Part shown: piece by piece, positions 3,823 to 58,689 of the stretch
Position numbering within the stretch: the stretch's first letter is position 1
How the letters are laid out: each line of letters opens with the position of its first letter
Assembly (NCBI GenBank): GCA_964629815.1
Contig: CAZVTA010000003.1
Location: 112,721-176,720, forward strand
Reading direction: 5' to 3'
Length of the DNA stretch: 64,000 bases
DNA from: an uncultured Candidatus Saccharibacteria bacterium
GTDB taxonomy: Bacteria; Patescibacteriota; Saccharimonadia; Saccharimonadales; AWTP1-31
Position numbers and translations under genes: made by a program
The notes under the pieces: generated by a model
Database searches by the model: none
What the model saw: only the letters and a program-made list of their open reading frames with translations
Told to the model about the DNA's origin: nothing

Positions 3823-4010
3823 TTGACATACCAACCACTTTATTGATATTTGTGGTATTACAACTGAGTGTTGGTTGTAGACAATGAAACATAACTCGTA
3901 TTTGGACGCTTGAGTTATGTGGAGTCAGTAGCGTAACCGGGCAACCAAACTTTCTCTGCTATAACGGCTCGAGAGGTTTGGACCCTAACAGGCCAAACCT
4001 CTTTTGTATT
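3823..4010 (+). promoter_or_regulatory. Candidate leader/attenuator: promoter-like TTGACA (3823-3828), hairpin 3890-3919, mutually exclusive antiterminator (3945-3956 with 3971-3981) and terminator (3971-3981 with 3993-4002, then TTTGTATT)
   Basis: Segments CCAAACTTTCTC / GAGAGGTTTGG / CCAAACCTCT read directly. The middle segment can pair with either neighbour. No obvious promoter lies between the terminator and the SD-led ATG at 4083. Confidence 0.4.
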
Positions 4011-4082
4011 AGCTAAATAAATATGCAAAGTGAGCGAGTCTAGTGACTGAGCCTAGCTACGCATATGCCAAAAGGAGATACA

Positions 4083-6986
4083 ATGCCCGAACACAGCCCT
4101 GCACGCTATTCGGAAGAGCTTACAAAATTAATGGCGTGTACAGATAATGATTCCTTAGTGCGCGTACATGATGCACTGTATGTTCGTGATGGCGAAGACT
4201 GGCAGTACCTACACCATGTAGGCGGAGTGCGACTATATGATCCTCGATACGACGAAGTGAAAACAAATGGCCAGCCCCAAGAACTGAAGCCGTGGGAGCA
4301 GTTTGTGCTAAACGGTGATTTTACAGTAATTGGCGACTACTTTCGCGACGGTAGACATCGCGATGTTGGTGCACGAGTACTTGGGGTTGAAGCAACAGAT
4401 TTATGTGCAGATGCACTACGAGAAGAGTTGGTAAGAGGCAAGGACCAGCTTGTATCGTTTGGCCAAGCCGGTAAAACGGTTGCGGTTGCCGCAGGCGATG
4501 GGGTAGTGTTTATGGCCCGGAAGACAGGCGAACATTCTAAGCAAATTGTCGCAGCAGCGGCTGCATCTGCCGTGCTATTTGGTGGTGTTGGGCTGCGTAT
4601 GGATCATATGGTTCCCGAACAGCCCGTGCCCACAGAACAAGCGCACGCCGCGACGCGGGGCGTTTCGATTGCAGTGCACGTAGATTCAACGACGGATGTC
4701 GAGGATTTGTCGTATCAGGTTGGTATGCCGCTCGAGCAAGTGCGACTTTCTGCCGACGGCAAAACGGCACACGTTACTATTCCACAGCCAACAATATTAC
4801 CAAAAATGACGCATGAACAAGAGACAGAACTTGCAACTCAGCTTGGTATTGATCCTCAGGTTATGAAAGCTGCCAACGAAGATACAACGAGCACAATTGT
4901 GCCGGTTCAGGACCTCGAGTTGGTACAGGTTACGGCGATAAGCCCAAATACTAAAGCAGTAGCGCAGGCGGTAGGCTTGCATGAGCAGGCAGTACAGGCA
5001 GTAACGATTGGCGATGAACATATGCTTGCCATGAGAACGCACATGATTGATGCCGACCCAACGGTTTGGGAAGACATGGCTTCCATCGTTTCTGTCGCAG
5101 CAAATTTACCTGAAAACGCTCAACAAAAAACTACGGTGGTTGAGGGCCAGACACCTGCAGAAGTGGCGCCGACACCGCAACCTGCACCCGAAGTTATAAC
5201 TCCCGAAGCAAAATATCATAAAGACATAGCAGAGGTGCAAAAAGCGCTCGAACATGCAGTTCAGACAGGGGGAGACCTTGGTCCGTTAAATCATATGGTA
5301 GTCTATTCGCCGTTATTTAACCCACGGCACGATTTGCCAGGCGATCTTGAATCTACTCGGCGTATACGATATATGCCACCTTCAAATCTGATGGAAATAC
5401 CCGGTTTGAAATACGAGTTTTCTCGTGGGGCGGGCGATATGCAGCGCTATGCAACTAATGAGACGGTCGCGACCACACTATACCTAGCGTATGCTTACCA
5501 ACAATATCTTGCACAGCATCCAGAATTACAGGCTACAATTGGCAACTCGTGTTTGCGGATTGGTGATTTGTCTGCAAAACACGATCATAAAACACACCAT
5601 GGTTCCATGGTGGACTACACTTCAAGCTTAAACTGCGACGTTCAGCACGGTCACCAGGTGGCAGATGGTCCTGTATTGTGGCTCAACCGTTCAACCGGCG
5701 GTGTGAGCGGAAGAATTGAAAATCCGCATTATGACCGAGCTATGGACATGTTCTTGCTGCAGGCACTAATGGGGGCTCATATTGGCGACAACTCATTAGT
5801 AGGCTCGATCCTCTACAACATTGATGGTGTAGATGTGCCGCGTTTGAAGAAGGCTGCAAACCATAGCAATCACGCTCATATAAATACAGCACCAGCGTTT
5901 AAAGATCTGCACCTGAAGGAATTTGCAGTTGGGGGTGAGCGTCCAGAGCTTAATCTAGATGGTTTGCGGGCAAGCGTGTTTGGTGATTACGTCCAAGGTT
6001 ACGGAGTGCCTGGTGTAAGTGATATGCCCCTATCCACGCTTGAGCAGCCAACTCAGCCGGCTCCCGTCGCACCTGAAGCAGTGGTAGCTGCGCAGGAAGT
6101 TACTGCTTCGCCTGAAGATCAATTTAAGTGGCATGTTGGTATGCTATTGAACGAAATTGCAGCCGGCGAGGGTGGGTATGATTCGGTTAACCGTGGTGTT
6201 GCCGGCGACACAAAAGTTGGCAGCGAAGCCTACCAGCGATTGTTTAGTGGACGGCAGTTGTCGCAGCTGACGATTGCAGAAATTCAGGCTAGCGATGCGT
6301 TTGCGGTGGGTAAATATCAGTTCATACCAAAAACCCTCGAGTCTGCAGTTCGTGCTTTGGGATTCGATAGAAATCGTGTGTTCGATTCTGCAACACAAGA
6401 TGAACTTGCAACAAAGTACTTGTTGTTCGCCAAGCGCCCAGCGTTAGCCAACTATTTGCGTGGTCAGTCAGACGACGTAAATGCTGCGGTTACTGCGCTG
6501 TGTATGGAGTTTGCGTCGATGCCGTGTCTCGACGGTACAGGGCATTACGATGGTGATCGTGCTGGCAATAACGCTGTGGGTGGTACAGAACGCGTCGCCC
6601 ATATACGGGCGCTGCTTACAAATGTGCGCAACGCCTTTGTTGGCTCGATCCTTACGGCCTATGCAGAAGCAAATTTGCCACCGGTTGAACCAGAAGAGGT
6701 TCCGATAGCCCCGACTCCGCCTATAACGCCATCTACGACCGCGGCGGTGCAGGCCGAGCCAGAAGTAGTACCACCGGTAACTGAAGCTGAAACATCTCGC
6801 GGTGCAGCACAGCAGGACGACGTGACTGGCCCAATTGTTTCGCTTTCGGAAGAAAGTGTGCGGCGAGTGCTGGGTTCGGTGATCGATGATGAAAACCGTA
6901 TTAACGATGCACTACAACAACTACAGGTTAATGACGAAGGTAGATACCAAATATCTACACAGCAGTTAATAGAGTTATCACAATAA
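4083..6986 (+). CDS. Large membrane-anchored putative cell-wall hydrolase: LAS-type metallopeptidase-like region + lambda-lysozyme/lytic-transglycosylase-like domain, Pro/Ala-rich linkers
   Basis: Start moved to the ATG at 4083, preceded by AAAGGAGA. One TM (QIVAAAAASAVLFGGVGL). HKTHHGSMVD (~5578-5616) plus NHSNHAHI (~5859-5885) resemble the HxxH..D / HxH motifs of MepA/M15-like LAS peptidases. EGGYDSVN...VGKYQFIPKTL...FDSATQDELA (~6166-6420) resembles phage lambda R-type lysozymes. Confidence 0.55.
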   Translation: MPEHSPARYSEELTKLMACTDNDSLVRVHDALYVRDGEDWQYLHHVGGVRLYDPRYDEVKTNGQPQELKPWEQFVLNGDFTVIGDYFRDGRHRDVGARVLGVEATDLCADALREELVRGKDQLVSFGQAGKTVAVAAGDGVVFMARKTGEHSKQIVAAAAASAVLFGGVGLRMDHMVPEQPVPTEQAHAATRGVSIAVHVDSTTDVEDLSYQVGMPLEQVRLSADGKTAHVTIPQPTILPKMTHEQETELATQLGIDPQVMKAANEDTTSTIVPVQDLELVQVTAISPNTKAVAQAVGLHEQAVQAVTIGDEHMLAMRTHMIDADPTVWEDMASIVSVAANLPENAQQKTTVVEGQTPAEVAPTPQPAPEVITPEAKYHKDIAEVQKALEHAVQTGGDLGPLNHMVVYSPLFNPRHDLPGDLESTRRIRYMPPSNLMEIPGLKYEFSRGAGDMQRYATNETVATTLYLAYAYQQYLAQHPELQATIGNSCLRIGDLSAKHDHKTHHGSMVDYTSSLNCDVQHGHQVADGPVLWLNRSTGGVSGRIENPHYDRAMDMFLLQALMGAHIGDNSLVGSILYNIDGVDVPRLKKAANHSNHAHINTAPAFKDLHLKEFAVGGERPELNLDGLRASVFGDYVQGYGVPGVSDMPLSTLEQPTQPAPVAPEAVVAAQEVTASPEDQFKWHVGMLLNEIAAGEGGYDSVNRGVAGDTKVGSEAYQRLFSGRQLSQLTIAEIQASDAFAVGKYQFIPKTLESAVRALGFDRNRVFDSATQDELATKYLLFAKRPALANYLRGQSDDVNAAVTALCMEFASMPCLDGTGHYDGDRAGNNAVGGTERVAHIRALLTNVRNAFVGSILTAYAEANLPPVEPEEVPIAPTPPITPSTTAAVQAEPEVVPPVTEAETSRGAAQQDDVTGPIVSLSEESVRRVLGSVIDDENRINDALQQLQVNDEGRYQISTQQLIELSQ

Positions 6987-14606: not shown

Positions 14607-14746
14607 TGGTGCGGATGAGATGGCTTGTTCAGTTCCATCCGGAATATGAGCAGTGCGAACGAGCCGTTAGGCGAGCTTTAGGGGGAGGGGTACGAAATTT
14701 GGATTCACTCCATATTCGTACCGGAGGGGTTCACCCCTCCTGAATG
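14607..14746 (-). other. tRNA-Leu(CAG) 3'-half mimic with spacer. Hairpin GGAGGGG-TGAA-CCCCTCC is followed by a GGTACGAA/TTCGTACC hairpin. A T-arm-like hairpin GATGG-AACTGAACAAG-CCATC follows, and the mimic ends in T-CATCCGC-ACCA.
   Basis: The last 14 nt are identical to the tRNA 3' end (14747-14760). The pseudo T-stem differs from the real GGAGG/CCTCT by paired changes. Confidence 0.6.
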
Positions 14747-14833
14747 TGGTGCGGATGAGAGGACTTGAACCTCCACGGGGTTGCCCCCACTACGACCTGA
14801 ACGTAGCGCGTCTACCAATTCCGCCACATCCGC
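14747..14833 (-). tRNA. tRNA-Leu(CAG), type II, CCA encoded
   Basis: GCGGATG..CTACG-TTCAGGT-CGTAG..GGAGG-TTCAAGT-CCTCT-CATCCGC-ACCA folded by eye; 87 nt. Confidence 0.95.
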
Positions 14834-14917
14834 ATATGATTTGAATGTTAAAGGTACTTCAGATATGTAGATAGTGGGGTCCCCACAAAATTGATAGATT
14901 TTGAGGGGTAAGGTGTT

Positions 14918-14958
14918 GCGCGTCTACCATTCGCTAGACAGCGAACCGCCACATCCGC
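14918..14958 (-). other. Pseudo 5' fragment of tRNA-Leu(CAG): acceptor 5' strand + D-arm, with the D-loop AAT replaced by a 16-nt hairpin TTCGCT-GTCT-AGCGAA
   Basis: GCGGATGTGGCGG[TTCGCTGTCTAGCGAA]TGGTAGACGCGC versus the real GCGGATGTGGCGGAATTGGTAGACGCGC. A TTGCAG-17-TATTAT promoter-like sequence lies just upstream. Confidence 0.6.
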
Positions 14959-15082
14959 ATGTGATTTGTATTAACAGATGACATAATAGTCTATATGAAA
15001 CGTCACTGCAAATCTCACACAGCGGTCGTTTCGTATGGTATGATATATGCCAGAACTACTAATGCTTTAACTTCGAGGGAAC

Positions 15083-18102: not shown

Positions 18103-18189
18103 GCGCGAGTGCTGGAATTGGTAGACAGGCTACGTTGAGGTCGTAGTGTTCGTAAGGACGTGGAGGTTCAAGTCCTCTCTCGCGCACCA
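18103..18189 (+). tRNA. tRNA-Leu(GAG), type II, CCA encoded
   Basis: GCGCGAG..CTACG-TTGAGGT-CGTAG..GGAGG-TTCAAGT-CCTCT-CTCGCGC-ACCA; 87 nt. Confidence 0.95.
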
Positions 18190-18227: not shown

Positions 18228-18254
18228 GTAGCCGGTGGATTTGAACCGATAGGT

Positions 18255-18339
18255 GAGAAATGCCAGTGGCATTTTGCAAGGAAACCTTCTCTTGAAAACT
18301 TGTTTTCAAAGACGAAGTTTCGGGCCCGCAGAATGTGGG
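18255..18339 (+). ncRNA. 85-nt three-hairpin module, copy B
   Basis: GAGA-AATGCC/AGT/GGCATT-TT-GCAAGG-P2(AAACCTTCTCTTGAAAAC..TTTTCAAAGACGAAGTTTC)-GGG-CCCGCA/GAA/TGTGGG. Lies between ..ATAGGT and CAAGTCC.., which is a T-loop context. Confidence 0.6.
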
Positions 18340-18360
18340 CAAGTCCTCTCTCGCGCACCA
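18340..18360 (+). repeat. 21-nt direct copy of the tRNA-Leu(GAG) 3' end (T-loop CAAGT through ACCA)
   Basis: CAAGTCCTCTCTCGCGCACCA is identical to 18169-18189. Confidence 0.9.
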
Positions 18361-18371
18361 AGCAAAATAGT

Positions 18372-20057: not shown

Positions 20058-20065
20058 CGAAAACG

Positions 20066-20090
20066 GCCGGTCTTATCGACCGGCTTTTTT
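20066..20090 (+). terminator. Intrinsic terminator after tRNA-Val
   Basis: GCCGGTC-TTATC-GACCGGC followed by TTTTTT. Confidence 0.75.
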
Positions 20091-20134
20091 CGTGCTTCGG
20101 TGCGGTCTTGAATATCCGACCAAAGGGTCGGGGT

Positions 20135-20219
20135 GAGAAATGCCGGTGGCATTTTGCAAGGGAGCCAACTCTTACAAACTGGTTTGTAAAGATGTTGCGA
20201 CGGGCCTGCCAAAGGTAGG
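20135..20219 (+). ncRNA. 85-nt three-hairpin module, copy C
   Basis: GAGA-AATGCC/GGT/GGCATT-TT-GCAAGG-P2(GAGCCAACTCTTACAAAC..GTTTGTAAAGATGTTGCGAC)-GGG-CCTGCC/AAA/GGTAGG. Flanked by GGGTCGGGGT (20125-20134) and TCGAGTCCC.., so it sits inside a pseudo tRNA-Val T-loop. Confidence 0.6.
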
Positions 20220-20241
20220 TCGAGTCCCTCACAACCCACCA
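20220..20241 (+). repeat. 22-nt direct copy of the tRNA-Val 3' end
   Basis: TCGAGTCCCTCACAACCCACCA is identical to 20036-20057. It is followed by a 16-bp perfect hairpin (20241-20276). Confidence 0.9.
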
Positions 20242-20352
20242 AAGGATAAGTCCCATCAAGATGGGACTTATCCTTTGGCTCCGTGTAGTTTTTACAAAGG
20301 TGGTTGTTTGCGCTTCTGCTTTTGCTACAATCGAACACATTGAGGAGGGTAC

Positions 20353-20805
20353 ATGGAACATTCGCCGGAAATGACTTACGGTGCTAGCTCGCTCGGTGCC
20401 GCAAGCTCAGAAGCTCTGCAACAGCAATACCAAGCCGCACTCGGTCGTATAGAAGCGCGAGAAGACGGCGATTACCTAGATGGATACCCACTCCCACCGG
20501 ACAACGACGATGTATGGAAGACGCAGAGAATTGACGCAGACGTAACGCGTTTTATTGAGCCCTCAGTAGGGTTTGAGAGCGTTTGTTGGACTACTGAAAG
20601 GCGCATTTCGATCTTAGAAATTACCAACGCTGTGCAGCGGCAACGTAATATCCAAAGTATTATTAACGGCTGTGGGCCGTTTGATATTACTCCAGAACAG
20701 ACGGTGTTTATTGGCCTAGAGTTGATGCGTCAGGCAAAACCTAGTCGTATGCAAAAATTGGCAGCTTTTGTTGGCCGTATTGTGGAAGGAATTGCAGAAG
20801 CATGA
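20353..20805 (+). CDS. Hypothetical protein (orphan cassette 2, gene 1)
   Basis: 150 aa; TACAAT box and GAGGAGG SD upstream. Confidence 0.55.
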   Translation: MEHSPEMTYGASSLGAASSEALQQQYQAALGRIEAREDGDYLDGYPLPPDNDDVWKTQRIDADVTRFIEPSVGFESVCWTTERRISILEITNAVQRQRNIQSIINGCGPFDITPEQTVFIGLELMRQAKPSRMQKLAAFVGRIVEGIAEA

Positions 20806-20981
20806 CGCACGAGCAGATGGCAGAATCTTGCCCATACAGCGAAGAAGGCATTGCGGCGGTAGCAGCCGTGGTGGAAAAAATATTTGCTGGCCCCAGTCCA
20901 CAATATGTCGAATGGTTGTCGGGTTATTTGCAGCAACGGCACGAAGTAGCAGCACGTATTGGTTCACTGCCATTGTTCTAG
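20802..20981 (+). CDS. Hypothetical 59-aa protein (below the ORF-track cutoff)
   Basis: Own translation: MTHEQMAESCPYSEEGIAAVAAVVEKIFAGPSPQYVEWLSGYLQQRHEVAARIGSLPLF. ATGA overlap with the upstream stop. Confidence 0.45.
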   Translation: MTHEQMAESCPYSEEGIAAVAAVVEKIFAGPSPQYVEWLSGYLQQRHEVAARIGSLPLF

Positions 20982-21021
20982 ACGTGCGTGGTGCTATACT
21001 CGATATGAATGGAGGTATGCT

Positions 21022-21594
21022 ATGGCAGATCGTAGTGCAGAAAGTCCGTTGCTGGGTATAGAGCATGCTTGTGGCGGTTGCGAACAGGTTGACGTGTTAG
21101 AGCGTCAAGCAGGCGAGATATTACGTGCATCTGGCATGGTTGGGTTTGTGAACGAAGAAGGAACGGTTAGAGTGTGGGTCGGTAGAGATTCGATAGTCGA
21201 TCGACCGCGCGAAGAGCGTTTAGCGCAGGCTGGTATGGTTATTGATGCCGAGGTTCTGGGTAGTAACGATTCGCTGCGTTGTGCTGCTGGTTGCCTTTTG
21301 GCCGAAGTTTGCCTGAGCGATGTGTATAGGGATGTCAATGAATCGAATCATCAGTATAGGCAAGGCCATAAGTGGCACCAGATGCCGCTAGAAGATATTG
21401 TTGCCATGCCGCCACTCCTGTCCCCTGACGATGAGGTTACGAGATTTATAGAAGAGGCGTTTGGCGACACGGCAACGGAACATCAGGCTGCCGAAAGGCC
21501 TACGCACGGCACGGTGCATGTTCCACAGGTAGACGGTACAATAGAACGGTTTACCATTCGTCGCAGCGAAATTAATAGTAGTCAGGTACAGTAA
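21022..21594 (+). CDS. Hypothetical protein (orphan cassette 2, gene 3)
   Basis: Start moved to the ATG at 21022, which has a GGAGG SD 6 nt upstream; 190 aa. Confidence 0.55.
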   Translation: MADRSAESPLLGIEHACGGCEQVDVLERQAGEILRASGMVGFVNEEGTVRVWVGRDSIVDRPREERLAQAGMVIDAEVLGSNDSLRCAAGCLLAEVCLSDVYRDVNESNHQYRQGHKWHQMPLEDIVAMPPLLSPDDEVTRFIEEAFGDTATEHQAAERPTHGTVHVPQVDGTIERFTIRRSEINSSQVQ

Positions 21595-21603
21595 CCAATT
21601 ACT

Positions 21604-21846
21604 ATGGATATAGAACAGATACAACCAGCGGACAGTCCAGCGATTGCAAGGCTTCGGTTTACAGACGTAAACGGCAACGTCCAAGAGCGGAGCATACCAA
21701 CCAAGCCCATATTGAATATTGGTGAATGCGCATTAAGGACCGAGTGGCCAGAACCACCAGCCGAAGCGCCTTTGGGCAGGGCGATTATTCGTACCGATAC
21801 ATACCCGGGCTGGGTAACGGTTCCTACGCGGCTACTGTTGAGCTAA
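21604..21846 (+). CDS. Hypothetical protein (orphan cassette 2, gene 4)
   Basis: 80-aa ORF. Confidence 0.45.
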   Translation: MDIEQIQPADSPAIARLRFTDVNGNVQERSIPTKPILNIGECALRTEWPEPPAEAPLGRAIIRTDTYPGWVTVPTRLLLS

Positions 21847-21970
21847 CTCGATAAGGTGGGCAACAAAGTCCCACACTGGGTGTTCAAGCCGTGCGTAATA
21901 ATGACGCTGTTCGCCTTCGGGTGTTTCGACTCGGCGTATCATTCCTAGTCGTGCTAGGCACGCCATCTCT

Positions 21971-22041
21971 TGGTGGCTCCTCCCAGATCGCTTCACCGAA
22001 CTGGTCGTTCGCTCCGCTCACTTTTCCAGTTCTCGTCTGGG
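21971..22041 (-). other. tRNA-Phe 3'-half mimic: intact T-stem CCCAG/CTGGG with a 44-nt hairpin-forming insertion in the T-loop, then AGGAGCC-ACCA
   Basis: Minus strand: CCCAG-ACGAG[AACTGGAAAAGTGAGCGGAGCGAACGACCAGTTCGGTGAAGCGA]T-CTGGG-AGGAGCCACCA. The last 17 nt are identical to 22083-22099. Confidence 0.6.
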
Positions 22042-22048
22042 TACCATT

Positions 22049-22082
22049 AAAAAAGACCCCAGCTTTAGTGGGGTATTTTTAA
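22049..22082 (-). terminator. Terminator directly after tRNA-Phe
   Basis: Minus strand: AAAAATACCCC-ACTAAAGCT-GGGGTCTTTTTT. Confidence 0.7.
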
Positions 22083-22158
22083 TGGTGGCTCCTCCCAGAC
22101 TCGAACTGGGGACACAAGGCTCTTCAGGCCTCTGCTCTACCAACTGAGCTAAAGAGCC
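22083..22158 (-). tRNA. tRNA-Phe(GAA), CCA encoded
   Basis: GGCTCTT-TA-GCTC..GAGGC-CTGAAGA-GCCTT-GTGTC-CCCAG-TTCGAGT-CTGGG-AGGAGCC-ACCA; 76 nt. Confidence 0.95.
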
Positions 22159-22217
22159 ACAACCCGTCTATTTTATGAGAAAAAACACTTTTCGGCAAGG
22201 GTAGGGCGGTTAATAAC

Positions 22218-22349
22218 TTGCAAAAACACATTTGTCGTATACAATAGGCAAAAGTATGAACAGTATTTGTATGGCAAAGAAGACAAAGCGACAGCCCTAG
22301 CCGAAGCGGCCTTTTTTGACATGAAGCCCCGCCTCGGCGGGGTCTTTTT
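22218..22349 (+). ncRNA. Candidate small transcript: TTGCAA-16-TACAAT promoter, about 100 nt, two tandem terminators (22300-22317, 22327-22349)
   Basis: GCCG-AAG-CGGC + CTTTTTT, then CCCCGCC-TC-GGCGGGG + TCTTTTT. Contains only a 14-codon ORF (MNSICMAKKTKRQP). Confidence 0.3.
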
Positions 22350-22421
22350 ATGCTGTATGTCGATAAAAAGATTCATCTAGGGCCAGCACAGACAATGCTA
22401 ACTTTAAATGAACTGTAATAT

Positions 22422-22775
22422 ATGGAAAATAACAGAACTATACCAATTCAACCAGACATTGAGCCACTTGTGCCGTTACTCATGGTAGAGGCTATCCGCG
22501 AATCAGGGCAGTTGGCTGTATCGGGGCGGCCATTGTTTGTGATGGGTGGCGAAAAAGAACGCTATTATAACGACACGGTTATAGAGCTAGACGTGCCGCT
22601 GTACATATCGGCACTGCGTTCGATTCGCATTCCGCTTCTTGGGCACTCGCATCTCGAAAAAGTGTTCATCGGTGAGTACCCAGTGCTTACGGGTATACAC
22701 CAGGTTACGGGCGAAGACTACATGTTTGGCATACGGCCAGAGCTGAACTTCGACTGGTGCGACAACGCGGTCTAA
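22422..22775 (+). CDS. Hypothetical protein
   Basis: 117-aa ORF. Confidence 0.5.
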   Translation: MENNRTIPIQPDIEPLVPLLMVEAIRESGQLAVSGRPLFVMGGEKERYYNDTVIELDVPLYISALRSIRIPLLGHSHLEKVFIGEYPVLTGIHQVTGEDYMFGIRPELNFDWCDNAV

Positions 22776-23107
22776 TACCACTTGGCGCCGTACATAAGCC
22801 CACCAATGATGATCAGCTGCTGTAAGACGAGCCAGCACGCCTGGTAAAATATAATAACCTTTTCTTTATGGACGATTCCGTACCATAACCATACAAGCGT
22901 AAACAGCTGGTAGCCCACCCACGAACTAATGGCTATGCCCTCAGCGGACTTGTCGCGAAAAATCACATAAAGCTGCGGTATCGTTACGATTGGTTCAATG
23001 GCGGCCACAAGGTAAGTGAGCCGGTCTACGAGCAGGGGCTTGGCCTGTTTTTTTACAATGAGGGCTTTGCGGGCTTTGGTGTGTTGGTGTTGCCGAAATT
23101 TTGTCAT
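22772..23107 (-). CDS. PQ-loop / SemiSWEET-like 3-TM protein (paralog of 14230-14529)
   Basis: 111 aa; VTIPQLYVIF PQ motif; aligns along its length with the 99-aa paralog. Confidence 0.6.
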   Translation of the reverse strand: MTKFRQHQHTKARKALIVKKQAKPLLVDRLTYLVAAIEPIVTIPQLYVIFRDKSAEGIAISSWVGYQLFTLVWLWYGIVHKEKVIIFYQACWLVLQQLIIIGGLMYGAKWY

Positions 23108-23184
23108 GCTTATGCTTTAACTTTACTTCATACTAACAAATCTTGAGTTATTGCACAAAATGCCGTATAATCTCAATCTGTTAT

Positions 23185-23306
23185 GCGGGTCTAGCTCAGT
23201 TGTTTAGAGTGAGAGCTGCCTGAGGCAGGTCGCAAGGAAACCTTCTCTTGAAAACTTGTTTTCAAAGACGAAGATTCGGGGTCGCGGAACGTGACCGTCC
23301 TTGCCA
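23185..23306 (+). other. Pseudo 5' half of tRNA-Gly(GCC) (positions 1-24, then anticodon stem/loop CGTCCTTGCCA) interrupted by the 85-nt module
   Basis: GCGGGTCTAGCTCAGTTGTTTAGAG is identical to 23357-23381. TTGAGT-17-TATAAT promoter at 23143-23171. TTTAGAGT (23203-23210) can pair with ACTCTAAA (23321-23328). Confidence 0.6.
23211..23295 (+). ncRNA. 85-nt three-hairpin module, copy E
   Basis: GAGA-GCTGCC/TGA/GGCAGG-TC-GCAAGG-P2 (identical to copy B except 1 nt)-GGG-GTCGCG/GAA/CGTGAC. Confidence 0.6.
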
Positions 23307-23356
23307 GGCCAAGGTTGTCTACTCTAAAATCAAGAGATGTTCGTTTAGCAATATAT

Positions 23357-23433
23357 GCGGGTCTAGCTCAGTTGTTTAGAGCGCGTCCTTGCCAAGGACG
23401 AGGCCAGGGGTTAGAGTCCCCTGACCCGCACCA
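23357..23433 (+). tRNA. tRNA-Gly(GCC), CCA encoded
   Basis: GCGGGTC..CGTCC-TTGCCAA-GGACG-AGGCC-AGGGG-TTAGAGT-CCCCT-GACCCGC-ACCA; 77 nt. Confidence 0.95.
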
Positions 23434-23505
23434 AGAAAAGAGTCTTGTCCGATAGGGCAGGGCTTTTTTCTTGGCTTCGGTTACAGATTCTAACACCTGC
23501 CAAAA

Positions 23506-23541
23506 GAGGCCAGGGTGAATAGTGCCAGTCTTGCACCACCA
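23506..23541 (+). other. Degenerate tRNA-Gly 3'-part mimic ending GCACCACCA
   Basis: GAGGCCAGGG matches 23400-23409 (G + variable loop AGGCC + T-stem AGGG). It then diverges (TGAATAGTGCCAGTCTT) and ends GCACCA+CCA. Followed by the 9-bp hairpin ATGACCCCC/GGGGGTCAT (23549-23572). Confidence 0.45.
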
Positions 23542-23578
23542 AAAATGCATGACCCCCATTTTCGGGGGTCATTTCATG

Positions 23579-24067
23579 CTATAGCATTTTAACCATAACG
23601 AGCTTACCGAGTTTGTGGCCAACTTCAGTAAACCCAAGCTTTTCGGTCAGTAACTTGCTATCCGCATTGCATTTTGCTATGAAACCTTTGTGCCCGTATT
23701 TCGCGACCATTTCTGGTGTCGACGCAGCATTCAGTAGTCCTGCAACTGTCTTTGTGCCTACGCCTTGGTTTCTGAATTGAGGCAGGGTGATTATGCCCCC
23801 GACGACTGCAAGGTTTTTGCCGTCGTATTTTTCGAAACCAGTCACTCCTGCGTAGCTCATAACATCGCAATGAAACACCCAATGTGGCGACATAAATTCG
23901 CTAACCATAGCCATACCTATTGGGTGATTTTTAATAGTGATTGGGTCTAATGCTTTCATGTCTTCTTGCGAAGACAGCTCACATATTTCTTCAAAATCTA
24001 GTTCTAAGAACGCATCGCCGCTTGGCTCGTAATATATCGTGTCATGCGGTACTAATTCGTATTTCAT
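23579..24067 (-). CDS. GNAT-family N-acetyltransferase
   Basis: Start moved to MKYELVPHD (AAGGA SD). Motif A: ITLPQFRNQGVGTKTVAGLL. Confidence 0.65.
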   Translation of the reverse strand: MKYELVPHDTIYYEPSGDAFLELDFEEICELSSQEDMKALDPITIKNHPIGMAMVSEFMSPHWVFHCDVMSYAGVTGFEKYDGKNLAVVGGIITLPQFRNQGVGTKTVAGLLNAASTPEMVAKYGHKGFIAKCNADSKLLTEKLGFTEVGHKLGKLVMVKML

Positions 24068-24357
24068 ACAATATCCTTTCAAATAAAAACGCCCCGTTGT
24101 CGGAGCGATGAAAGGCATTATTTTGTTATATTTTAGACACTACAAGCATCGCTCCCGTATATACGAGCGCGTCGAGTCTGAATAAATGTGCCTAGATAGT
24201 ACATAACATTATTAAACACTAACGTATTATAGTAGTCAAATATTTTTTGTATGCGCGCTACAAAATTTTCATACATTTAGCCTGTATATGGTGAAATCGT
24301 AAAAGACGCGCTACAATAGGTAACTATTACATAACTAATACAAGAAGGAGCACGTAT

Positions 24358-24549
24358 ATGGTCACAGGATACTGCGTTAAATGTAAAGAAAAAGGTGTAG
24401 AGCTAACAGATGCAGAAGTAGTACAAACTGCAAAAGGTGGCTACATGGCCAAAGGCAAGCACGCTGTATGCGGAACCACCGTTTGCGCCATGATGTCGAA
24501 AGAAAATGCCGAAAAGGCAGTAGAAGGCGGCGCCAAGAAGTCTTACTAA
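24358..24549 (+). CDS. Small zinc-ribbon protein (DUF5679-like)
   Basis: 63 aa; GYCVKCKEK...VCGTTVC pattern; AAGGAG SD; terminator at 24573-24600. Confidence 0.5.
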   Translation: MVTGYCVKCKEKGVELTDAEVVQTAKGGYMAKGKHAVCGTTVCAMMSKENAEKAVEGGAKKSY

Positions 24550-24572
24550 AATATTTTGTAGGATTATACAAA

Positions 24573-24600
24573 ACACCCCGCCTGGGGTGTTTTTAGTTTT
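24573..24600 (+). terminator. Intrinsic terminator
   Basis: ACACCCC-GCCT-GGGGTGT followed by TTTTAGTTTT. Confidence 0.75.
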
Positions 24601-24655
24601 TCATTTCAATGGTTCGTCTATTATATAAATATTTCAGGTATGCTATAGTGGACGC

Positions 24656-25369
24656 ATGATTCAAGACAGAGTAGTGGTGCCAGAAGCAGCAATTGCTGAT
24701 TTAACCGCCGTGGGTTTCCCGCTACTAGAAGGTGTAGAAGGCGATGAGCTCGTAAAAATTACAAATGCTCCGTGTGGCATGGAAGGATATGTAAAGGCAG
24801 AACACTTCATGCCACGTGCGTACGATTTGTATAACCCTTATCGGGCGACAAGACAAAGCACATTAGAATTTACACGAGGCGTGCACTTTAATGCGGTTGT
24901 TGAGCGTTATCTTGGGCGAAATTCATTGAATTTCGCGGATGGTGTCATCGGTGAGCTTATGCTGCACGCCGCCATCAATAATTGTGCGAGTATTGCGGCA
25001 ACGGCAGTGCGTATTGTGCTAGACCAAGAGCCAGATGGGCACTTTGAAGCTGCGGTGTGGGATGATGGTATATCGCACGAAGGCGTACAAGAAGCAACAG
25101 AATATCTACACGAAGATGAGTTTGGAGATTTAGAGAACCCTCATTCAAAACCAATGGGTGAAACAGATGCGGTATTGGGCCCCATGGCTGTTCGCGCCGT
25201 TACAACGGTCACAGCATTGCTGGGCGGCGAACTGAGTCTTATGAGTGCAGGAACGAAAGTAACCGTTCGGCACGATAAAGCGGCTGGTACATATGATTTT
25301 ACCGACGGTAAATGCCCAGTTACATCTGGCAACGTAATTGCGATGAAATTTCCATCACAACGATGGTAG
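24656..25369 (+). CDS. Hypothetical protein with weak GHKL/anti-sigma-kinase-like motifs
   Basis: 237 aa. ELMLHAAINNCASIA (N-box-like), VWDDGIS (G1-like) and a Gly-rich region. Leaderless layout: TGCTATAGT, then 6 nt, then ATG. Confidence 0.4.
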   Translation: MIQDRVVVPEAAIADLTAVGFPLLEGVEGDELVKITNAPCGMEGYVKAEHFMPRAYDLYNPYRATRQSTLEFTRGVHFNAVVERYLGRNSLNFADGVIGELMLHAAINNCASIAATAVRIVLDQEPDGHFEAAVWDDGISHEGVQEATEYLHEDEFGDLENPHSKPMGETDAVLGPMAVRAVTTVTALLGGELSLMSAGTKVTVRHDKAAGTYDFTDGKCPVTSGNVIAMKFPSQRW

Positions 25370-25396
25370 TGTGCTCTTTTTTGATATGATGAGGGT

Positions 25397-26116
25397 ATGA
25401 TTGAGGTTACGAACGAGACATATAACGGGCACACAATTGCCGTGGCGCACCACAACACTCACTCTAAACAGCTTGTTATCTTTTGTCATGGATACAGAGG
25501 TTCATCTATTGGCCCTAGTCGTAATTTTGTACGGGTTGCACAGATGCTTGAAGAGGCGGGCATATCGAGCCTTCGCTTTGACCAGTATGGTAGCGGAAAC
25601 TCGGATGGTGATTTTTACGAATCAAGTTTTAATGACTGGATAGCGACAACAAGAGCTATTACAGAACAGCATCTCGCCAAAGGACACCAAGTTATTTTAT
25701 TTGGTCAAAGTATGGGAGCGGCAGCTGTTATCGCTGCTGGAGCCGATTTGCGTGACATTACTGCCGTAGTTGCATGGGTGCCGGATCCAAGCGTAGACGA
25801 TCTAATCTTGCCTAAAAGTGGGTTTATGGAAGAAGGTGGCCAACGTGTGCAATCGGCTTTCTGGAAAGAAGCTCATGAAGTGAACGTTGCAGATAAACTC
25901 GCAGGTCTGAAGGCAAACGCGCTTATTATTCAGTGTACAGGCGACGAATATGTAGATGCAGCAAATCGTGCCGCAATTGCTGCAAGCGCGCAGCCTAATC
26001 ACAGCGTGCTTGATTTTGAAGGTTATACGCATAGTAGCTGGACGTATGATCAGGCCGAACCCGTATTGCAGAAAAGCGTGGACTTTATTGTTCGATCGTT
26101 TAGACAGAGCTCATAG
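25397..26116 (+). CDS. Alpha/beta hydrolase
   Basis: 239 aa; nucleophile elbow GQSMGAA; C-terminal His region. Confidence 0.75.
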   Translation: MIEVTNETYNGHTIAVAHHNTHSKQLVIFCHGYRGSSIGPSRNFVRVAQMLEEAGISSLRFDQYGSGNSDGDFYESSFNDWIATTRAITEQHLAKGHQVILFGQSMGAAAVIAAGADLRDITAVVAWVPDPSVDDLILPKSGFMEEGGQRVQSAFWKEAHEVNVADKLAGLKANALIIQCTGDEYVDAANRAAIAASAQPNHSVLDFEGYTHSSWTYDQAEPVLQKSVDFIVRSFRQSS

Positions 26117-26158
26117 TTTCCCCGTCAAATCGGTGTCTGAATCTGATATCATAAGCCC

Positions 26159-26722
26159 ATGGATACATTTCTTGGTGGCGCGGCAGTCGTTGTAGGCTTT
26201 ATTGGGTATGTTCCGTACTTTACGACTATATTAAGTGGAAAAACAAAACCCCATGCTTTTACTTGGTTTGTGTGGGGTTTACTGACTGCAATTGCATTCG
26301 GTGGCCAGATTGTAGGCGGAGGTGGCGCTGGTACTTGGGTGACGGGTTTTACTGCGATAATTAGCTTTGTTATTTTTGGACTGGCGCTTTTTAGGGGTAA
26401 ACGTGATTTTCCGCTTGCAGATTGGCTGTGTCTTAGTGGCTGTCTTTTGGCGTTATTAGTGTGGTTTCTAACCGATAGTCCTTTAGGCGCAATTGTGCTC
26501 ATAACGCTTATAGATTTGCTGGCGTTTGTTCCGACGTTTCGTAAAACATATCGTTCCCCAGAGAGCGAGCCGGCTGCAACCTATGTGCTGAGCGCTATAA
26601 AATTTGTCTTTGGTATAGCGGCGTTACAAAGTTTTTCGGTCCTGACGGTTCTGTATCCAGCTTCGCTTGTGCTGACTAATGGGTTGTTTGTAGTAATGCT
26701 TCTGGTTCGAAGAAGCAATTAA
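26159..26722 (+). CDS. Multi-pass membrane protein
   Basis: 187 aa, about 6 TM; TGATATCAT box 6 nt before the ATG. Confidence 0.5.
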   Translation: MDTFLGGAAVVVGFIGYVPYFTTILSGKTKPHAFTWFVWGLLTAIAFGGQIVGGGGAGTWVTGFTAIISFVIFGLALFRGKRDFPLADWLCLSGCLLALLVWFLTDSPLGAIVLITLIDLLAFVPTFRKTYRSPESEPAATYVLSAIKFVFGIAALQSFSVLTVLYPASLVLTNGLFVVMLLVRRSN

Positions 26723-26841
26723 GCCCTAAAGAGGCAATGAAGTAGTATGAAGTTCGAGATACATTTTGCGGGCAATTAATAAAACCGTAGGCGAAGAGGT
26801 TGTGGTGGCAATAAAAGAGCGCTTCGAATAACTTGGTTGGC

Positions 26842-27360
26842 TTAGTGTTTGATAAGGCGGGGAATTCGGAACGGGCTGACGTACAAAAAAGCCAGAATAG
26901 CAATACAAACCGCCATAGTTTGCGTAGACATGTCGGTAATAAAGAGTGCGATCATTAAAATCGTGCTCGCGTCTATGGGTACGCCAATAAAGTAGTTTTT
27001 GGTCTTTTTCCGATTAATATTGTAACGCGCTAAACGTAGTGCGCCACAGATTGGTATCAGTGCAGCGAGTGCAGTTAGCCAATCGGTTTGATAGTAGCTC
27101 ATAATAATGATAAATGGTGTTGCACCAAAACTGACGAGGTCTGCGAGCGAATCGAGTTCGGCGCCGAAGTCGGATTCTTGGCCAAGGTAGCTGGCTAGTT
27201 TGCCGTCGAGAATATCAAAGAGCATTCCGATTAACAAGGCAATAACCGCAGCAGTAAAGCGACCATGGATTGCGGCGTACATGCTGCCCAGCCCAGCTGC
27301 TAAGTTGGCGATAGTTGCGATGTTTGCAGGCTTAAAACCTCTAAGAATTGATTTGTGCAA
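26842..27360 (-). CDS. pssA: CDP-diacylglycerol--serine O-phosphatidyltransferase
   Basis: CDP-alcohol phosphatidyltransferase motif DILDGKLA..GAELDSLADLVSFG. Confidence 0.8.
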   Translation of the reverse strand: MHKSILRGFKPANIATIANLAAGLGSMYAAIHGRFTAAVIALLIGMLFDILDGKLASYLGQESDFGAELDSLADLVSFGATPFIIIMSYYQTDWLTALAALIPICGALRLARYNINRKKTKNYFIGVPIDASTILMIALFITDMSTQTMAVCIAILAFLYVSPFRIPRLIKH

Positions 27361-27964
27361 TGATTGTTTCTCCGGCTATTACTTTTTGGCCGACTGTTAC
27401 TTTAAGCATAACAGATTTGGGCACAACGAGTGTAACTTGCGAGCCAAGATTAATAAGGCCGACAATCTGACCAGTATTGACCGCTTCCTTTACTTTTACA
27501 AATGTCTCGATTCGGCGCGCTAAGAATCCGGCAATTTGGATCATTTTGACCTTAACGTACTTACCAGCAATAACAATTTCGGTTTTTTCGTTTACTAACC
27601 CTGCTTCGAGCGAATTTACTGGTAGGAGCTTACCATCTGAATGGTTAATGCTGGTAATAGTGCCTGCTATTGGAGCTCGGTTGTAGTGTACGTCGAGTGG
27701 TGACATAAATATCGACACGATGTAACCAGAAGGTGCTACGTCGTTGGTGAGTGTAGATATTTTTCCAAGAATCCTGTGATTTCCCTTAAACATGTCGGCA
27801 TGGTTTTGTGTAAAGGGAACGATAGCAATAACTTTGCCATCTGCAGGTGAAACCACAACGTTGCCTTCGGGGATGGTGCGTTCTGGGTTGCGCAAGAAAA
27901 CAAGTTTCCAAAACAGCAAACCCACCAAAGCAATGGCAAGAAATAGAAGGGCAAGTAGGATCAT
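27341..27964 (-). CDS. psd: Phosphatidylserine decarboxylase proenzyme (short type)
   Basis: 207 aa; N-terminal TM; LGS self-cleavage site (INLGSQVTLV); overlaps pssA. Confidence 0.8.
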   Translation of the reverse strand: MILLALLFLAIALVGLLFWKLVFLRNPERTIPEGNVVVSPADGKVIAIVPFTQNHADMFKGNHRILGKISTLTNDVAPSGYIVSIFMSPLDVHYNRAPIAGTITSINHSDGKLLPVNSLEAGLVNEKTEIVIAGKYVKVKMIQIAGFLARRIETFVKVKEAVNTGQIVGLINLGSQVTLVVPKSVMLKVTVGQKVIAGETIIAQINS

Positions 27965-28041
27965 GATAAATGTAACTATACACGATTAAACACAAGCAGA
28001 AAAACATAGACAAAAAGCAATAAATATGTTAAAATAAATAC

Positions 28042-56915: not shown

Positions 56916-57710
56916 TTAGCCGCGTGGTTTTCGAGGAAAAAATACGCTTGTTCGTTTTGCGTAGGCCTGAAAATCTGGATTGTCTTTGTATTTTTTCTCG
57001 AGCATGGGTATGCCGGATACGAAGATAATAAGGTAAGAGATAGTTGCGGGCCCGAGAAGGCCAAGTAACTTAATATTCGTTGATATGTCGGTAGCGGCAA
57101 GCACGAGCCATACGCCCCACCACTGGGTAACTTCTCCGAAATAATTGGGGTGGCGTGTATAGTTCCATAGACCTTGGTTCATGATCTTGCCTTTATTTTT
57201 TGGGTTGGCAATGAACTGGCGTAGTTGCCAGTCGCCAACCGTTTCGAAATAAAACCCAAGGCCCCATAGTAAAATACCTGCCCACAGCCAGGCGGGGATA
57301 ATTACAGTGTTTTGTATGCCAACCGTATATAAAACGGGGGAAACAACTACGAGCATAAAAAGTCCTTGCAATATAAAGACTTGCAAATATGTACGAATGA
57401 CAAACCACTTGCCCCACTCATCACGCCATTGTTTGTATCTAAAATCTTCGTGTTTGCCGTGATTACGCGTGTAGATGTGTATAGCAAGCCGCAATCCCCA
57501 AAGTGTGGTGAGTATCAGGGCAACGATGCTCGCTTGCTGGCTTGTACGATGTTTCGCAAAAGTCCACCATGCGGTAGCAATAAACCCAAGACCCCACGCG
57601 ATATCGGCGACATCGTTACGTTTTTTGAGTTGGCTCCATAAAAACCAAGCGGTCATATAACAAAAAATAAAGAGTGCCCCCGAACCTATAAGAGAAAGTG
57701 CTGTATCCAT
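56916..57710 (-). CDS. DUF1295 / steroid-5-alpha-reductase-like membrane protein
   Basis: 264 aa, multi-TM; [20 protein letters not shown]. Confidence 0.7.
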
Positions 57711-57821: not shown

Positions 57822-58124
57822 ATGGATCCAACACAAGATCAGCCTGCTGTACCAACGCCAAGCGTTGACCCAGCTGCACCAGCACCGGCTCCAGCGCCAG
57901 CAGAAAGCGCTACACCAGACATCACTGTAAGTGCGCCAATGGCAGATATACCAACGCCAAGCGTTGACCCAGCTGCACCAGCACCTGTAGAGCCTGCACC
58001 GGCTGTAGAACCTGCGCCAGTTGTAGAGCCTGCACCGGCTCCAGCTGACCCAGCTGCACCAGCACCGGCTCCAGCAGAAGAGGGTGCGCCCGCAGAAGCG
58101 CCACAGCAATTCGGATCATTCTAA
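57822..58124 (+). CDS. Pro/Ala-rich low-complexity protein
   Basis: 100 aa. GGAGGG SD. DNA-level repeats (CCAACGCCAAGCGTTGACCCAGCTGCACCAGCACC at 57852 and 57951). Terminator at 58143-58172. Confidence 0.45.
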   Translation: MDPTQDQPAVPTPSVDPAAPAPAPAPAESATPDITVSAPMADIPTPSVDPAAPAPVEPAPAVEPAPVVEPAPAPADPAAPAPAPAEEGAPAEAPQQFGSF

Positions 58125-58176: not shown

Positions 58177-58689
58177 ATGAGTGGATATAAAGGACACATA
58201 ACAGGCGCGGTCTTAGCGAATACTGTACTCGTTGGCGGTATGGCGGTTTCCCCATGGGAATTTACGAATCGTGCCAGCATACTTATGAATAACTGGCAGT
58301 TTATTGCGGCAATGTATGTTATTGCGATTCTTTTTGGATTATGGCCCGACGTAGATACTAATAGCAAAGGACAGAATATTTTTTTTGCCATAGCGTTTAC
58401 GCTCGACATTGTCCTTATTGCTACCGGCAAAACCGAAACTGCCGCTTACCTCGGATTGCTGGCCATGACGCCCATTATTGGAAGGCATCGTGGGTGGACA
58501 CATAGCAAGCTTGCGGCTTTGTTAGTGCCGCTACCTATTGTACTTGTGCCATACATGAACCGAAGTACGTTGCTTGCGGCTTCATGCGTGTTATATGCTG
58601 CTGCCGTAACTGGATACCTCAGTCATTTGCTACTCGATGGTCTTTTGGTTAAGGGAATACGCTTCTCTGGTAAGTGGAATGATCGTTAA
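58177..58689 (+). CDS. Membrane-bound metal-dependent hydrolase (YdjM/DUF457-like)
   Basis: 170 aa, 4-5 TM; GRHRGWTHS motif. Confidence 0.55.
   Translation: MSGYKGHITGAVLANTVLVGGMAVSPWEFTNRASILMNNWQFIAAMYVIAILFGLWPDVDTNSKGQNIFFAIAFTLDIVLIATGKTETAAYLGLLAMTPIIGRHRGWTHSKLAALLVPLPIVLVPYMNRSTLLAASCVLYAAAVTGYLSHLLLDGLLVKGIRFSGKWNDR

Follow-up and report, generated by a model that had tools for sequence, protein, structure and literature searches.

A three-hairpin RNA module within partial tRNA copies beside tRNA-Gly(GCC) and other tRNA genes of Candidatus Saccharibacteria

We analyzed the transfer RNA (tRNA) gene tRNA-Gly(GCC) and its flanks on contig CAZVTA010000003.1 of an uncultured Candidatus Saccharibacteria, a group of ultra-small, epibiotic and mostly uncultured bacteria. 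All coordinates refer to the window, the 64-kb stretch of DNA that was analyzed as a whole. The intact gene, with its CCA end encoded, occupies 23357-23433 on the plus strand (ARAGORN; Rfam RF00005, 67.5 bits versus a gathering score of 29). As judged from its sequence, the locus is one working tRNA gene set between two partial copies of itself, the downstream of which is a decayed mirror image. The upstream copy contains an 88-nucleotide (nt) module that belongs to a family of structured RNAs found beside many tRNA genes of these bacteria. This nesting, with the module in a 5' pseudo-half, the intact tRNA 3' of that pseudo-half and a degenerate 3' mimic beyond, had been proposed in an earlier sequence-only reading of the same DNA, and every feature listed there for the locus was recovered in its place.

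The upstream copy is marked by an exact 28-nt direct repeat, TATGCGGGTCTAGCTCAGTTGTTTAGAG, present at 23182-23209 and 23354-23381 with an offset of 172 nt (plus strand, as for all features of the locus unless noted). The duplicated part of tRNA-Gly comprises nt 1-24 plus three leader bases; because the repeat begins at 23182, the pseudo-half starts at 23185, as had been proposed. Its first segment, 23185-23208 (repeat family D7), reproduces the acceptor 5' strand and D arm without mismatch. The module follows directly at 23209-23296 (P1 23210-23234, P2 23237-23277, P3 23280-23296), where it stands in for GCGC, nt 25-28 of the tRNA in linear numbering (between nt 24 and 29). It scored 106 bits with a covariance model (E = 8e-24, E-values of our custom models being rough) and 97 bits with a second, broader model. 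A hairpin at 23297-23314, GTCCTTGCCAGGCCAAGG, corresponds to the anticodon arm of tRNA-Gly with a 5-nt insertion, and CTTGCCAGGCCAAG was invariant at 10 of 10 orthologous loci. Beyond it, 23319-23345 repeats the 5' part of the tRNA in inverted orientation, as a weak and degenerate copy in which ACTCTAAA (23321-23328) pairs with TTTAGAGT (23203-23210). This pairing closes the minimum-free-energy fold of the 5' element, and the inverted copy is clearer at loci L111 and L069. The pseudo-half as a whole (23185-23314) holds only nt 1-24 and an altered anticodon arm; it forms no complete cloverleaf and gave no RF00005 match even at E ≤ 10.

Two promoter-like sites precede the tRNA. The distal one, a sigma-70-type TTGAGT-17-TATAAT at 23143-23171, lies 5' of the pseudo-half and agrees with 10 of 12 consensus positions. 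Previously ranked as the best, it is tied by TTGCCA-18-TAAAAT at 23301-23330, between module and tRNA, which also reaches 10 of 12. On the other side of the gene, a 20-bp hairpin with A-tract and T-tract arms begins within the CCA end (23431-23474; -31.4 kcal/mol, z = -7.8). It had been described as weak and is in fact strong; by prediction it is a terminator or a processing stem. A degenerate inverted copy of the tRNA-Gly 3' part, TTGGCTTCGGTTACAGATTCTAACACCTGCC, follows at 23471-23501 (compared by reading with the reverse complement of tRNA nt 44-76), in the same place as the inverted arms of intact 3'-type elements. The decayed 3' pseudo-half at 23506-23541 consists of exact tRNA nt 43-52 (GAGGCCAGGG, 23506-23515), then GTGAATAGTGCCAGT, which represents the first bases of a module whose remainder is mostly deleted, and a decayed acceptor and CCA end with GCACCACCA at 23533-23541. 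The strings GAGGCCAGGG and GCACCACCA had both been pointed out before. Neither of the two covariance models gave a match in this pseudo-half, and the same tRNA-Gly 3' element is intact at loci L074, L113 and L065. Last comes a hairpin at 23549-23572 (terminator scan, assigned to neither strand; -17.7 kcal/mol), for which a stem of 9 bp had been claimed and 10 pairs were found. In the scan it counted as terminator for an acetyltransferase gene that converges on the locus (23579-24118, minus strand; Pfam GNAT matches), and it may also close the plus-strand unit.

Two sister copies of the module reside in the window, both on the plus strand. At tRNA-Leu(GAG), downstream of the tRNA (18103-18189) and its terminator, the module (18253-18340) is joined to 22 nt of the tRNA 3' end, copied exactly (18340-18361). 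At tRNA-Val(TAC), a 3' pseudo-half holds the module (20133-20220) in its T loop and includes a 22-nt repeat without mismatch at 20220-20241; a terminator, then an inverted arm and a small hairpin, come before the module (20065-20132). All three copies share the fold P1, P2 and P3, with compensatory changes among them, and a 29-nt pattern of the module core occurs three times in the window versus never in 100 shuffles. One covariance model was built from the three window copies and the second was broader; run with filters off, the two found no extra or degenerate copy in the 64-kb window beyond the three intact ones. A 17.8-bit match at 20216-20284 on the minus strand was dismissed because it overlaps a terminator hairpin. 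The Gly module had been labelled module copy E. A module is indeed there, and since the window holds only three intact copies, that label must include degenerate remnants.

To gather related loci, genomes were searched with a pattern that demands an intact P1 and leaves P2, P3 and the flanks free; the comparison drew on 8-kb stretches from other genomes and, for the source genome, on the 64-kb window. The core pattern occurs at 120 or more loci, at least, of a species-representative genome collection, and among the matches listed nearly all are labelled Candidatus Saccharibacteria or Saccharimonadales. The few loci labelled otherwise have genuine modules in an equivalent setting, and mis-binning is the probable cause of their labels; locus L007 was rejected as a chance match. 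Covariance models matched 123 copies from 100 sources and 90 assemblies, and the neighboring tRNAs span 31 isoacceptors.

Over the 123 aligned copies, 94.8% of cells are paired, versus 31-51% when pairing partners were slid by 1-3 columns. Compensatory change on both sides was seen in 32 of 34 base pairs, and the covariation score was 0.56, versus 0.04-0.08 in the slid controls. Predicted base pairs made up 20 of the 21 strongest column pairs by mutual information, a scan that gave nothing outside the secondary structure and hence no pseudoknot. G-U pairs are conserved (GU in 90 sequences at one P3 position, for example), which places the fold on the tRNA-sense strand; the structure is therefore one formed by RNA. 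The unpaired core (GUGAGA, GCC-NGU-GGC, UYGCAAGG and CGG(G)) is nearly invariant, an invariance that the search pattern partly imposes. The Gly module of the window combines the three-hairpin fold, the core GUGAGA...GCC-NGU-GGC...UYGCAAGG...CGG(G) and covariation support. A longer subtype (GCAAGGCCGGAAGCC...), only weakly captured by the covariance models, has a different P2 and an extended P3 with an extra hairpin. It occurs at L024, L032, L071, L083, L092-L094, L099, L106, L108 and several more loci, often in the D loop of tRNA-Gln copies.

Genes of the window are syntenic with these Saccharibacteria loci at 64-69% nucleotide identity. Because it encodes leucyl-tRNA synthetase, BipA, NAD-dependent ligase (LigA) and a Mur ligase (Pfam), the window is part of a cellular chromosome. 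Its proteins were matched in Logan assemblies of runs SRR16481182-4. Two Logan contigs from the source samples (L124 and L125) end at the same point inside tRNA-Gly; this fits a 28-nt repeat breaking de Bruijn assembly, so tRNA loci of these genomes may be systematically fragmented in metagenome-assembled genomes made from short reads. A search of positions 20300-28000 against INPHARED phages returned tRNA matches only, and strict and relaxed patterns found no module in the 2.9 million viral contigs of IMG/VR. Rfam 15 at gathering score assigned no family to any module of the window; at the permissive cut-offs E ≤ 10 or E ≤ 5, 16 copies (three from the window, 13 from further loci) gave only tRNAs and scattered noise. 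No published description of the module was found in the open-access literature, where Fremin and Bhatt (2021; PMC8040213) report a taxonomically unclassifiable structured RNA, HMP2_2419, near valS, leuS and ileS in human microbiomes. By the measure of Rfam 15 and this literature, the family is apparently undescribed and widespread beside Saccharibacteria tRNA genes.

A tRNA lies within 450 nt of 99 of the 123 copies, on the same strand in 96 and on the opposite strand in three, and the flanks of the module are copies, often perfect, of that neighboring tRNA. These elements come in two mirror-image layouts. In the downstream type (57 copies, that of window Leu and Val), the tRNA is followed by a long A-tract/hairpin/T-tract stem, the 3' part of the tRNA imperfectly copied in inverted orientation, a small hairpin, 8-10 nt of tRNA sequence, the module, and the exact rest of the tRNA through CCA. 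The inverted arm prolongs the terminator palindrome. Beyond the end piece, the trailer and terminator of the tRNA are often repeated as well, and young copies have a direct repeat of 50-62 nt that reaches the end of the T-run. The upstream type (39 copies, that of window Gly) runs from a promoter through tRNA nt 1 to X, the module, more tRNA sequence, sometimes an inverted copy, and a short spacer to the tRNA. By this comparison the Gly upstream element is of the standard upstream type, and the "degenerate 3' mimic" is a decayed element of the downstream type. The inverted copies of tRNA ends, the replacement rule described below and the phylum-wide conservation of the RNA family all go beyond what the sequence-only reading had recognized. 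At L022, L055, L115 and L076, modules in tRNA-Ala and tRNA-Ile pseudo-halves lie inside 16S-23S spacers, some copies after tRNA-Ala, so that they probably share the transcript of the ribosomal RNA operon.

The module core takes the place of exactly four tRNA bases in 48 of 49 doubly anchored cases. In the T loop, the bases replaced read GTTC or GGTT; at positions 24-27, GCGC, GTGC, GTGT or GAGC; in the variable loop, GGTC, with GTCC in the three opposite-strand tRNA-Phe cases; after the anticodon, GGTG; and in the D loop, GGTA. As the core starts with G and usually ends with C, the module in effect supplants the two inner bases of G-N-N-C. The window Gly copy follows suit, lying in a partial copy of the adjacent tRNA on the same strand with G-N-N-C/Y replaced. 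Among the fetched loci, which are biased to module regions, the last 18 nt of the tRNA recur downstream for roughly one third of tRNAs and the first 18 nt recur upstream for one quarter, and some of these duplicated ends hold other small inserts. Such inserts were seen at the module position at L065, L113, L044, L070 and L112, in pseudo 3' halves of Phe, Ala, Ser, Leu, Val and Gly tRNAs. A GAGCA...GCGAAC-like motif recurs among them, and short TTGCC...GGCAAGG hairpins also occur. They may represent further module families or deletion derivatives.

Conservation was assessed by aligning 10 tRNA-Gly loci of other Saccharibacteria over the whole unit. The distal -35/-10 pair aligns with TTGCAA/TATAAT-like hexamers at the same position in 8 of 10, in keeping with the promoter that had been assigned there. 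The copy of nt 1-24 is identical to its cognate tRNA in 9 of 10, although position 7 and the D loop of the tRNA vary from species to species, and the module fold is maintained in all 10 through many compensatory changes. The spacer before the tRNA is unalignable; the hairpin CTTGCCAGGCCAAG that precedes it is invariant. At the Val locus, the module, small hairpin and 3' copy are conserved, and both terminators have drifted. The window Val module shares 88% identity with the L091 module, versus 72% with the window Leu and 61% with the window Gly module, and the FAD-oxidase gene next to the Val element is 68% identical to its L091 counterpart. Because the Val module is thus closer to its ortholog than to modules of its own genome or than the neighboring gene is to its counterpart, individual copies are kept in place under constraint. 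Mean module identity was 0.68 within genomes, 0.69 at orthologous sites and 0.66 for other pairs, values that are saturated save for individual clear pairs. Module and tRNA-derived piece are far better conserved at orthologous loci than spacers and neighboring genes.

The family also bears marks of movement and decay. Near-identical modules (91-99%) are found at different tRNAs and insertion positions of one genome, modules are nested in modules at GGUC of the P2-P3 junction, after CGG, and three copies have the opposite orientation. The nested and near-identical copies show that the module has moved or been copied. A longer, autonomous version with an open reading frame (ORF) was sought among the truncated matches L041, L089, L025 and L118; these are either decayed modules or instances of the longer subtype B, and none has an ORF. 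Elsewhere in the window, tRNA-Phe (22083-22158, minus strand) is followed on its own strand by an element at 21970-22082 composed of a terminator, an inverted T arm copy and a 3' pseudo-half with GGAGCCACCA at its end. The T loop of this pseudo-half contains a 10-nt insert, GGTGAAGCGA, in place of the module. The orthologous Phe pseudo-copy at L019, L052 and L101 contains a reverse-oriented module in the variable loop. Around tRNA-Leu(CAG) (14747-14833, minus strand; region ~14608-14960), an upstream 5' pseudo-half has a 15-nt hairpin, TTCGCTGTCTAGCGA, in its D loop and a decayed downstream copy ends CTCATCCGCACCA; neither element contains the module.

In the sequence-only reading, the module RNA was taken, provided that the promoter had been assigned correctly, to be part of the 5' leader of the tRNA-Gly precursor, from which RNase P processing of the real tRNA would release it. 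A terminator-like hairpin separates module and tRNA at only 1 of 39 upstream-type loci, and with so few terminators co-transcription as a leader is the natural reading. At the Gly locus, this model gains from the distal promoter kept in 8 of 10 orthologs and is weakened by the rival proximal site. A -10-like hexamer lies 5-25 nt 5' of the tRNA at 25 of 39 upstream-type loci; together with the proximal site, this means that the tRNA need not rely on the distal promoter. The leader idea does not extend to the family as a whole, because most copies, including window Leu and Val and 57 of 99 tRNA-linked copies elsewhere, are downstream of their tRNA, and a terminator-like hairpin stands between tRNA and module at 44 of 53 downstream-type loci with short spacers.

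We give an even chance to the proposal that the module is a new structured RNA that entered duplicated tRNA ends site-specifically and is now selected as part of small non-coding RNAs adjacent to tRNA genes. At the Gly locus, the upstream element would be transcribed from its own conserved distal promoter, and the transcript would run on, terminator-free, into tRNA-Gly. Normal 5' maturation of the tRNA, presumably by RNase P, would then separate a module RNA of roughly 150-170 nt. The module would be the functional part, possibly a generic protein- or RNA-binding handle, and the tRNA-derived sense piece and inverted copy would close the element into a stable multi-helix junction with tRNA-type ends. 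Several observations weigh against this proposal. The hairpins at 44 of 53 downstream-type loci are among them; no promoter was seen for downstream-type copies, which may be poorly expressed. Transcription, processing and stability of a module RNA are themselves predictions. In the window, the 3' elements of Gly and Phe and both elements of Leu(CAG) have lost the module, and individual copies are therefore dispensable. The sample is biased to intact copies, because the search pattern requires an intact P1, and the identity of duplicated piece and tRNA could stem from gene conversion instead of selection.

A purely selfish insertion, intron-like or MITE-like (miniature inverted-repeat transposable element), which survives only in spare tRNA copies and has no role in the cell, would account for the nested insertions, for the 91-99% identical copies at different tRNAs of one genome, and for the decayed window copies and the other insert types at the same positions elsewhere. 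The strict 4-nt replacement suggests a defined insertion chemistry and fits as well. We nonetheless regard it as unlikely. Locus-specific variants of the module are conserved between species far above neighboring genes and spacers, and the hairpin CTTGCCAGGCCAAG, which is not part of the module, does not vary among 10 species. In the small, streamlined genomes of Saccharibacteria, dozens of neutral 150-nt elements would be unexpected. Moreover, no transposase, reverse transcriptase or homing endonuclease was found linked to the element, which lacks target-site duplications and terminal inverted repeats of its own. Somewhat less likely still is a cis-acting role in handling of the tRNA precursor, whereby an antisense arm that would poison folding of the adjacent tRNA arose by duplication and inversion at the palindrome of tRNA and terminator, and the sense copy with its module was retained to sequester that arm or to direct precursor processing. 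The sense-antisense-sense layout on both sides of tRNAs, the extension of the terminator palindrome by the inverted arm, the sense piece that stays identical to the tRNA while the inverted arm decays, and the upstream copies without a terminator before the tRNA all point this way. Such a role leaves unexplained why the same 88-nt module with its invariant core recurs at every locus and is conserved, and the inverted arm is very weak at the Gly 5' element.

We consider it improbable that the module is a new small RNA working on tRNA ends at the RNA level, either as a mobile element that enters structured loops of tRNA transcripts at G-NN-C or as a catalytic or ligase-recruiting RNA by whose attached exact tRNA piece and antisense arm tRNA ends would be replaced or complemented after cleavage, in a tRNA repair or exchange system of ultra-small bacteria. 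A more specific version earns slightly less credence. In it, the module is a small catalytic or ligase-recruiting RNA, and tRNAs cleaved in the T loop, D arm, variable loop or anticodon loop would receive the attached exact piece (nt 1-24, or nt 56-76 with CCA) as a replacement exon or as a complement; alternatively, the module would be the intron of a split or trans-spliced tRNA. The 3'-type layout, with an antisense arm, the module, an exact 3' piece with CCA and a trailer copy, resembles engineered trans-splicing ribozymes. The insertion points are classic sites of tRNA cleavage and modification, and 5' and 3' elements often flank the same tRNA. Against these likenesses, no ribozyme or intron family of Rfam 15 matched, and the module is merely 88 nt long with no pseudoknot covariation. 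An intact tRNA gene is always present, so splicing is unnecessary, and the pseudo-copies lack the other half that a tRNA would need. The repeats might alternatively be attL/attR remnants of lost islands or prophages that had integrated into tRNA genes, an idea that draws on the direct repeats of tRNA 3' ends, sometimes through the terminator, and on junctions in the T loop and anticodon loop, which are known sublocations of integrase crossover. It is largely refuted and in our view very improbable: some 150 nt separate the repeats with no integrase gene, the tRNA sequence goes on for 8-40 nt beyond the module, unlike in attachment (att) sites, a conserved RNA fold lies exactly at the junction, 5'-end duplicates are equally common, and none of the 2.9 million viral contigs matched. 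Chance similarity, or an assembly artifact made by repeats, is refuted and retains next to no credibility. Short-read contigs of the source do break in tRNA-Gly at the 28-nt repeat, but the pattern was absent from 100 of 100 shuffles, covariation is massive, and the same architecture occurs in 90 independent assemblies, contigs of 0.3-1 Mb included.

We rate the element as outside the known kinds, as far as Rfam 15 and the open-access literature show, because a defining feature of each near system was tested and was not found in it. Non-canonical tRNA introns of archaea, reportedly proposed to transpose and said to occur, along with split and tri-split tRNAs, in Thermoproteales, are likewise short structured inserts at D arm, anticodon, variable and T loops, with related copies across the tRNAs of one genome; on such introns, PMC8919778 cites Sugahara (2008) and Fujishima (2009). 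The module, in contrast, is found in bacteria, resides in a partial duplicate and not in the functional gene, and replaces 4 nt. By eye, no bulge-helix-bulge (two 3-nt bulges and a 4-bp helix) could be drawn at module junctions; the ends of the module lie in P1 and P3 of the predicted, covarying structure. We know of no splicing endonuclease in these bacteria. The att sites of tRNA genes share the succession of an intact tRNA and a second copy of its 3' end, with junctions in the T or anticodon loop, and direct repeats of tRNA 3' ends are present here too (22 nt exact in the window, up to 58-62 nt elsewhere). In the module elements, however, the interval between the repeats is about 150 nt and gene-free, with no ORF or integrase in the 60-85 nt between tRNA and module. 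A conserved RNA fold lies at the junction, tRNA sequence continues on both sides of the insert, and the elements include an extra inverted copy and 5'-end duplicates. Bacterial group I introns in tRNAs are also structured mobile RNAs that interrupt tRNA sequence. They measure 200 nt or more versus 88 nt, whereas the module occupies positions beyond the anticodon loop and has a pseudo-copy as host, and no Intron_gpI match of Rfam 15 fell at any module. A group I intron (Rfam, 74.5 bits) was observed at L061 7202-7409, minus strand, in the same 8-kb locus as two modules. A group II intron was rejected, as the 5' GUGAGA merely resembles GUGYG, no hairpin has domain V features (AGC triad, bulge, GNRA loop) and no Rfam match was obtained.

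YrlA/Y RNA, tmRNA, viral tRNA-like structures and mascRNA resemble the element in fusing a tRNA-derived piece to a separate structured domain, with maturation by tRNA-processing enzymes likely. In the module elements, by contrast, the tRNA part is a literal half of the neighboring tRNA, the family is multicopy with one version per tRNA, and no Rfam match was found. The 3' external transcribed spacer of leuZ is a functional RNA from a tRNA precursor that acts as a sponge, and leader or trailer RNAs of this sort, freed by tRNA maturation, correspond to the earlier leader model for Gly. They are unstructured and locus-specific, whereas the module is conserved, covarying and multicopy with a fixed insertion rule. 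MITEs and insertion sequences were rejected because four target bases are replaced and not duplicated and the two ends of the module do not form an inverted repeat. A C/D-box or kink-turn (K-turn) reading of GUGAGA...GUGAC was also rejected, since the 3' GUGAC is a covarying P3 strand and not a conserved box. Integron attC sites, hairpin ends of the IS200/IS605 type and dinucleotide crossover by serine recombinases were set aside as well: the target is replaced and the element is confined to tRNA-like sequence.

A strongly covarying, multicopy family in about 90 species, tied to tRNAs by a strict rule, would rank among the larger unexplained classes of structured RNA in bacteria. It offers a handle on how these bacteria treat single-copy tRNA genes, be it their expression, protection or repair, or their colonization by a new mobile RNA. 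The exact 4-nt loop replacement points to an insertion chemistry absent from the mobile-element and intron types with which it was compared. The covariance model permits annotation of module elements, and the family explains breaks of short-read assemblies at tRNA genes.

Three features apart from the module elements were also seen in the window. A c-di-GMP-II riboswitch aptamer at 3868-3951 on the plus strand (68 bits versus a gathering score of 53.5) lies upstream of an ORF of 973 amino acids (4065-6986) that has no Pfam match. The leucyl-tRNA synthetase (42197-45091, plus strand) contains a NUDIX domain at residues 377-502 (E = 6e-14), between the editing domain and the remaining catalytic core. 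Tandem imperfect repeats of 54 and 30 nt (D2 and D9), rich in CCAGC/GCACC, occupy 57833-58088 between an ORF at 56916-57710 (minus strand) and another at 58177-58689 (plus strand), and probably form a repetitive Pro/Ala-rich coding stretch.

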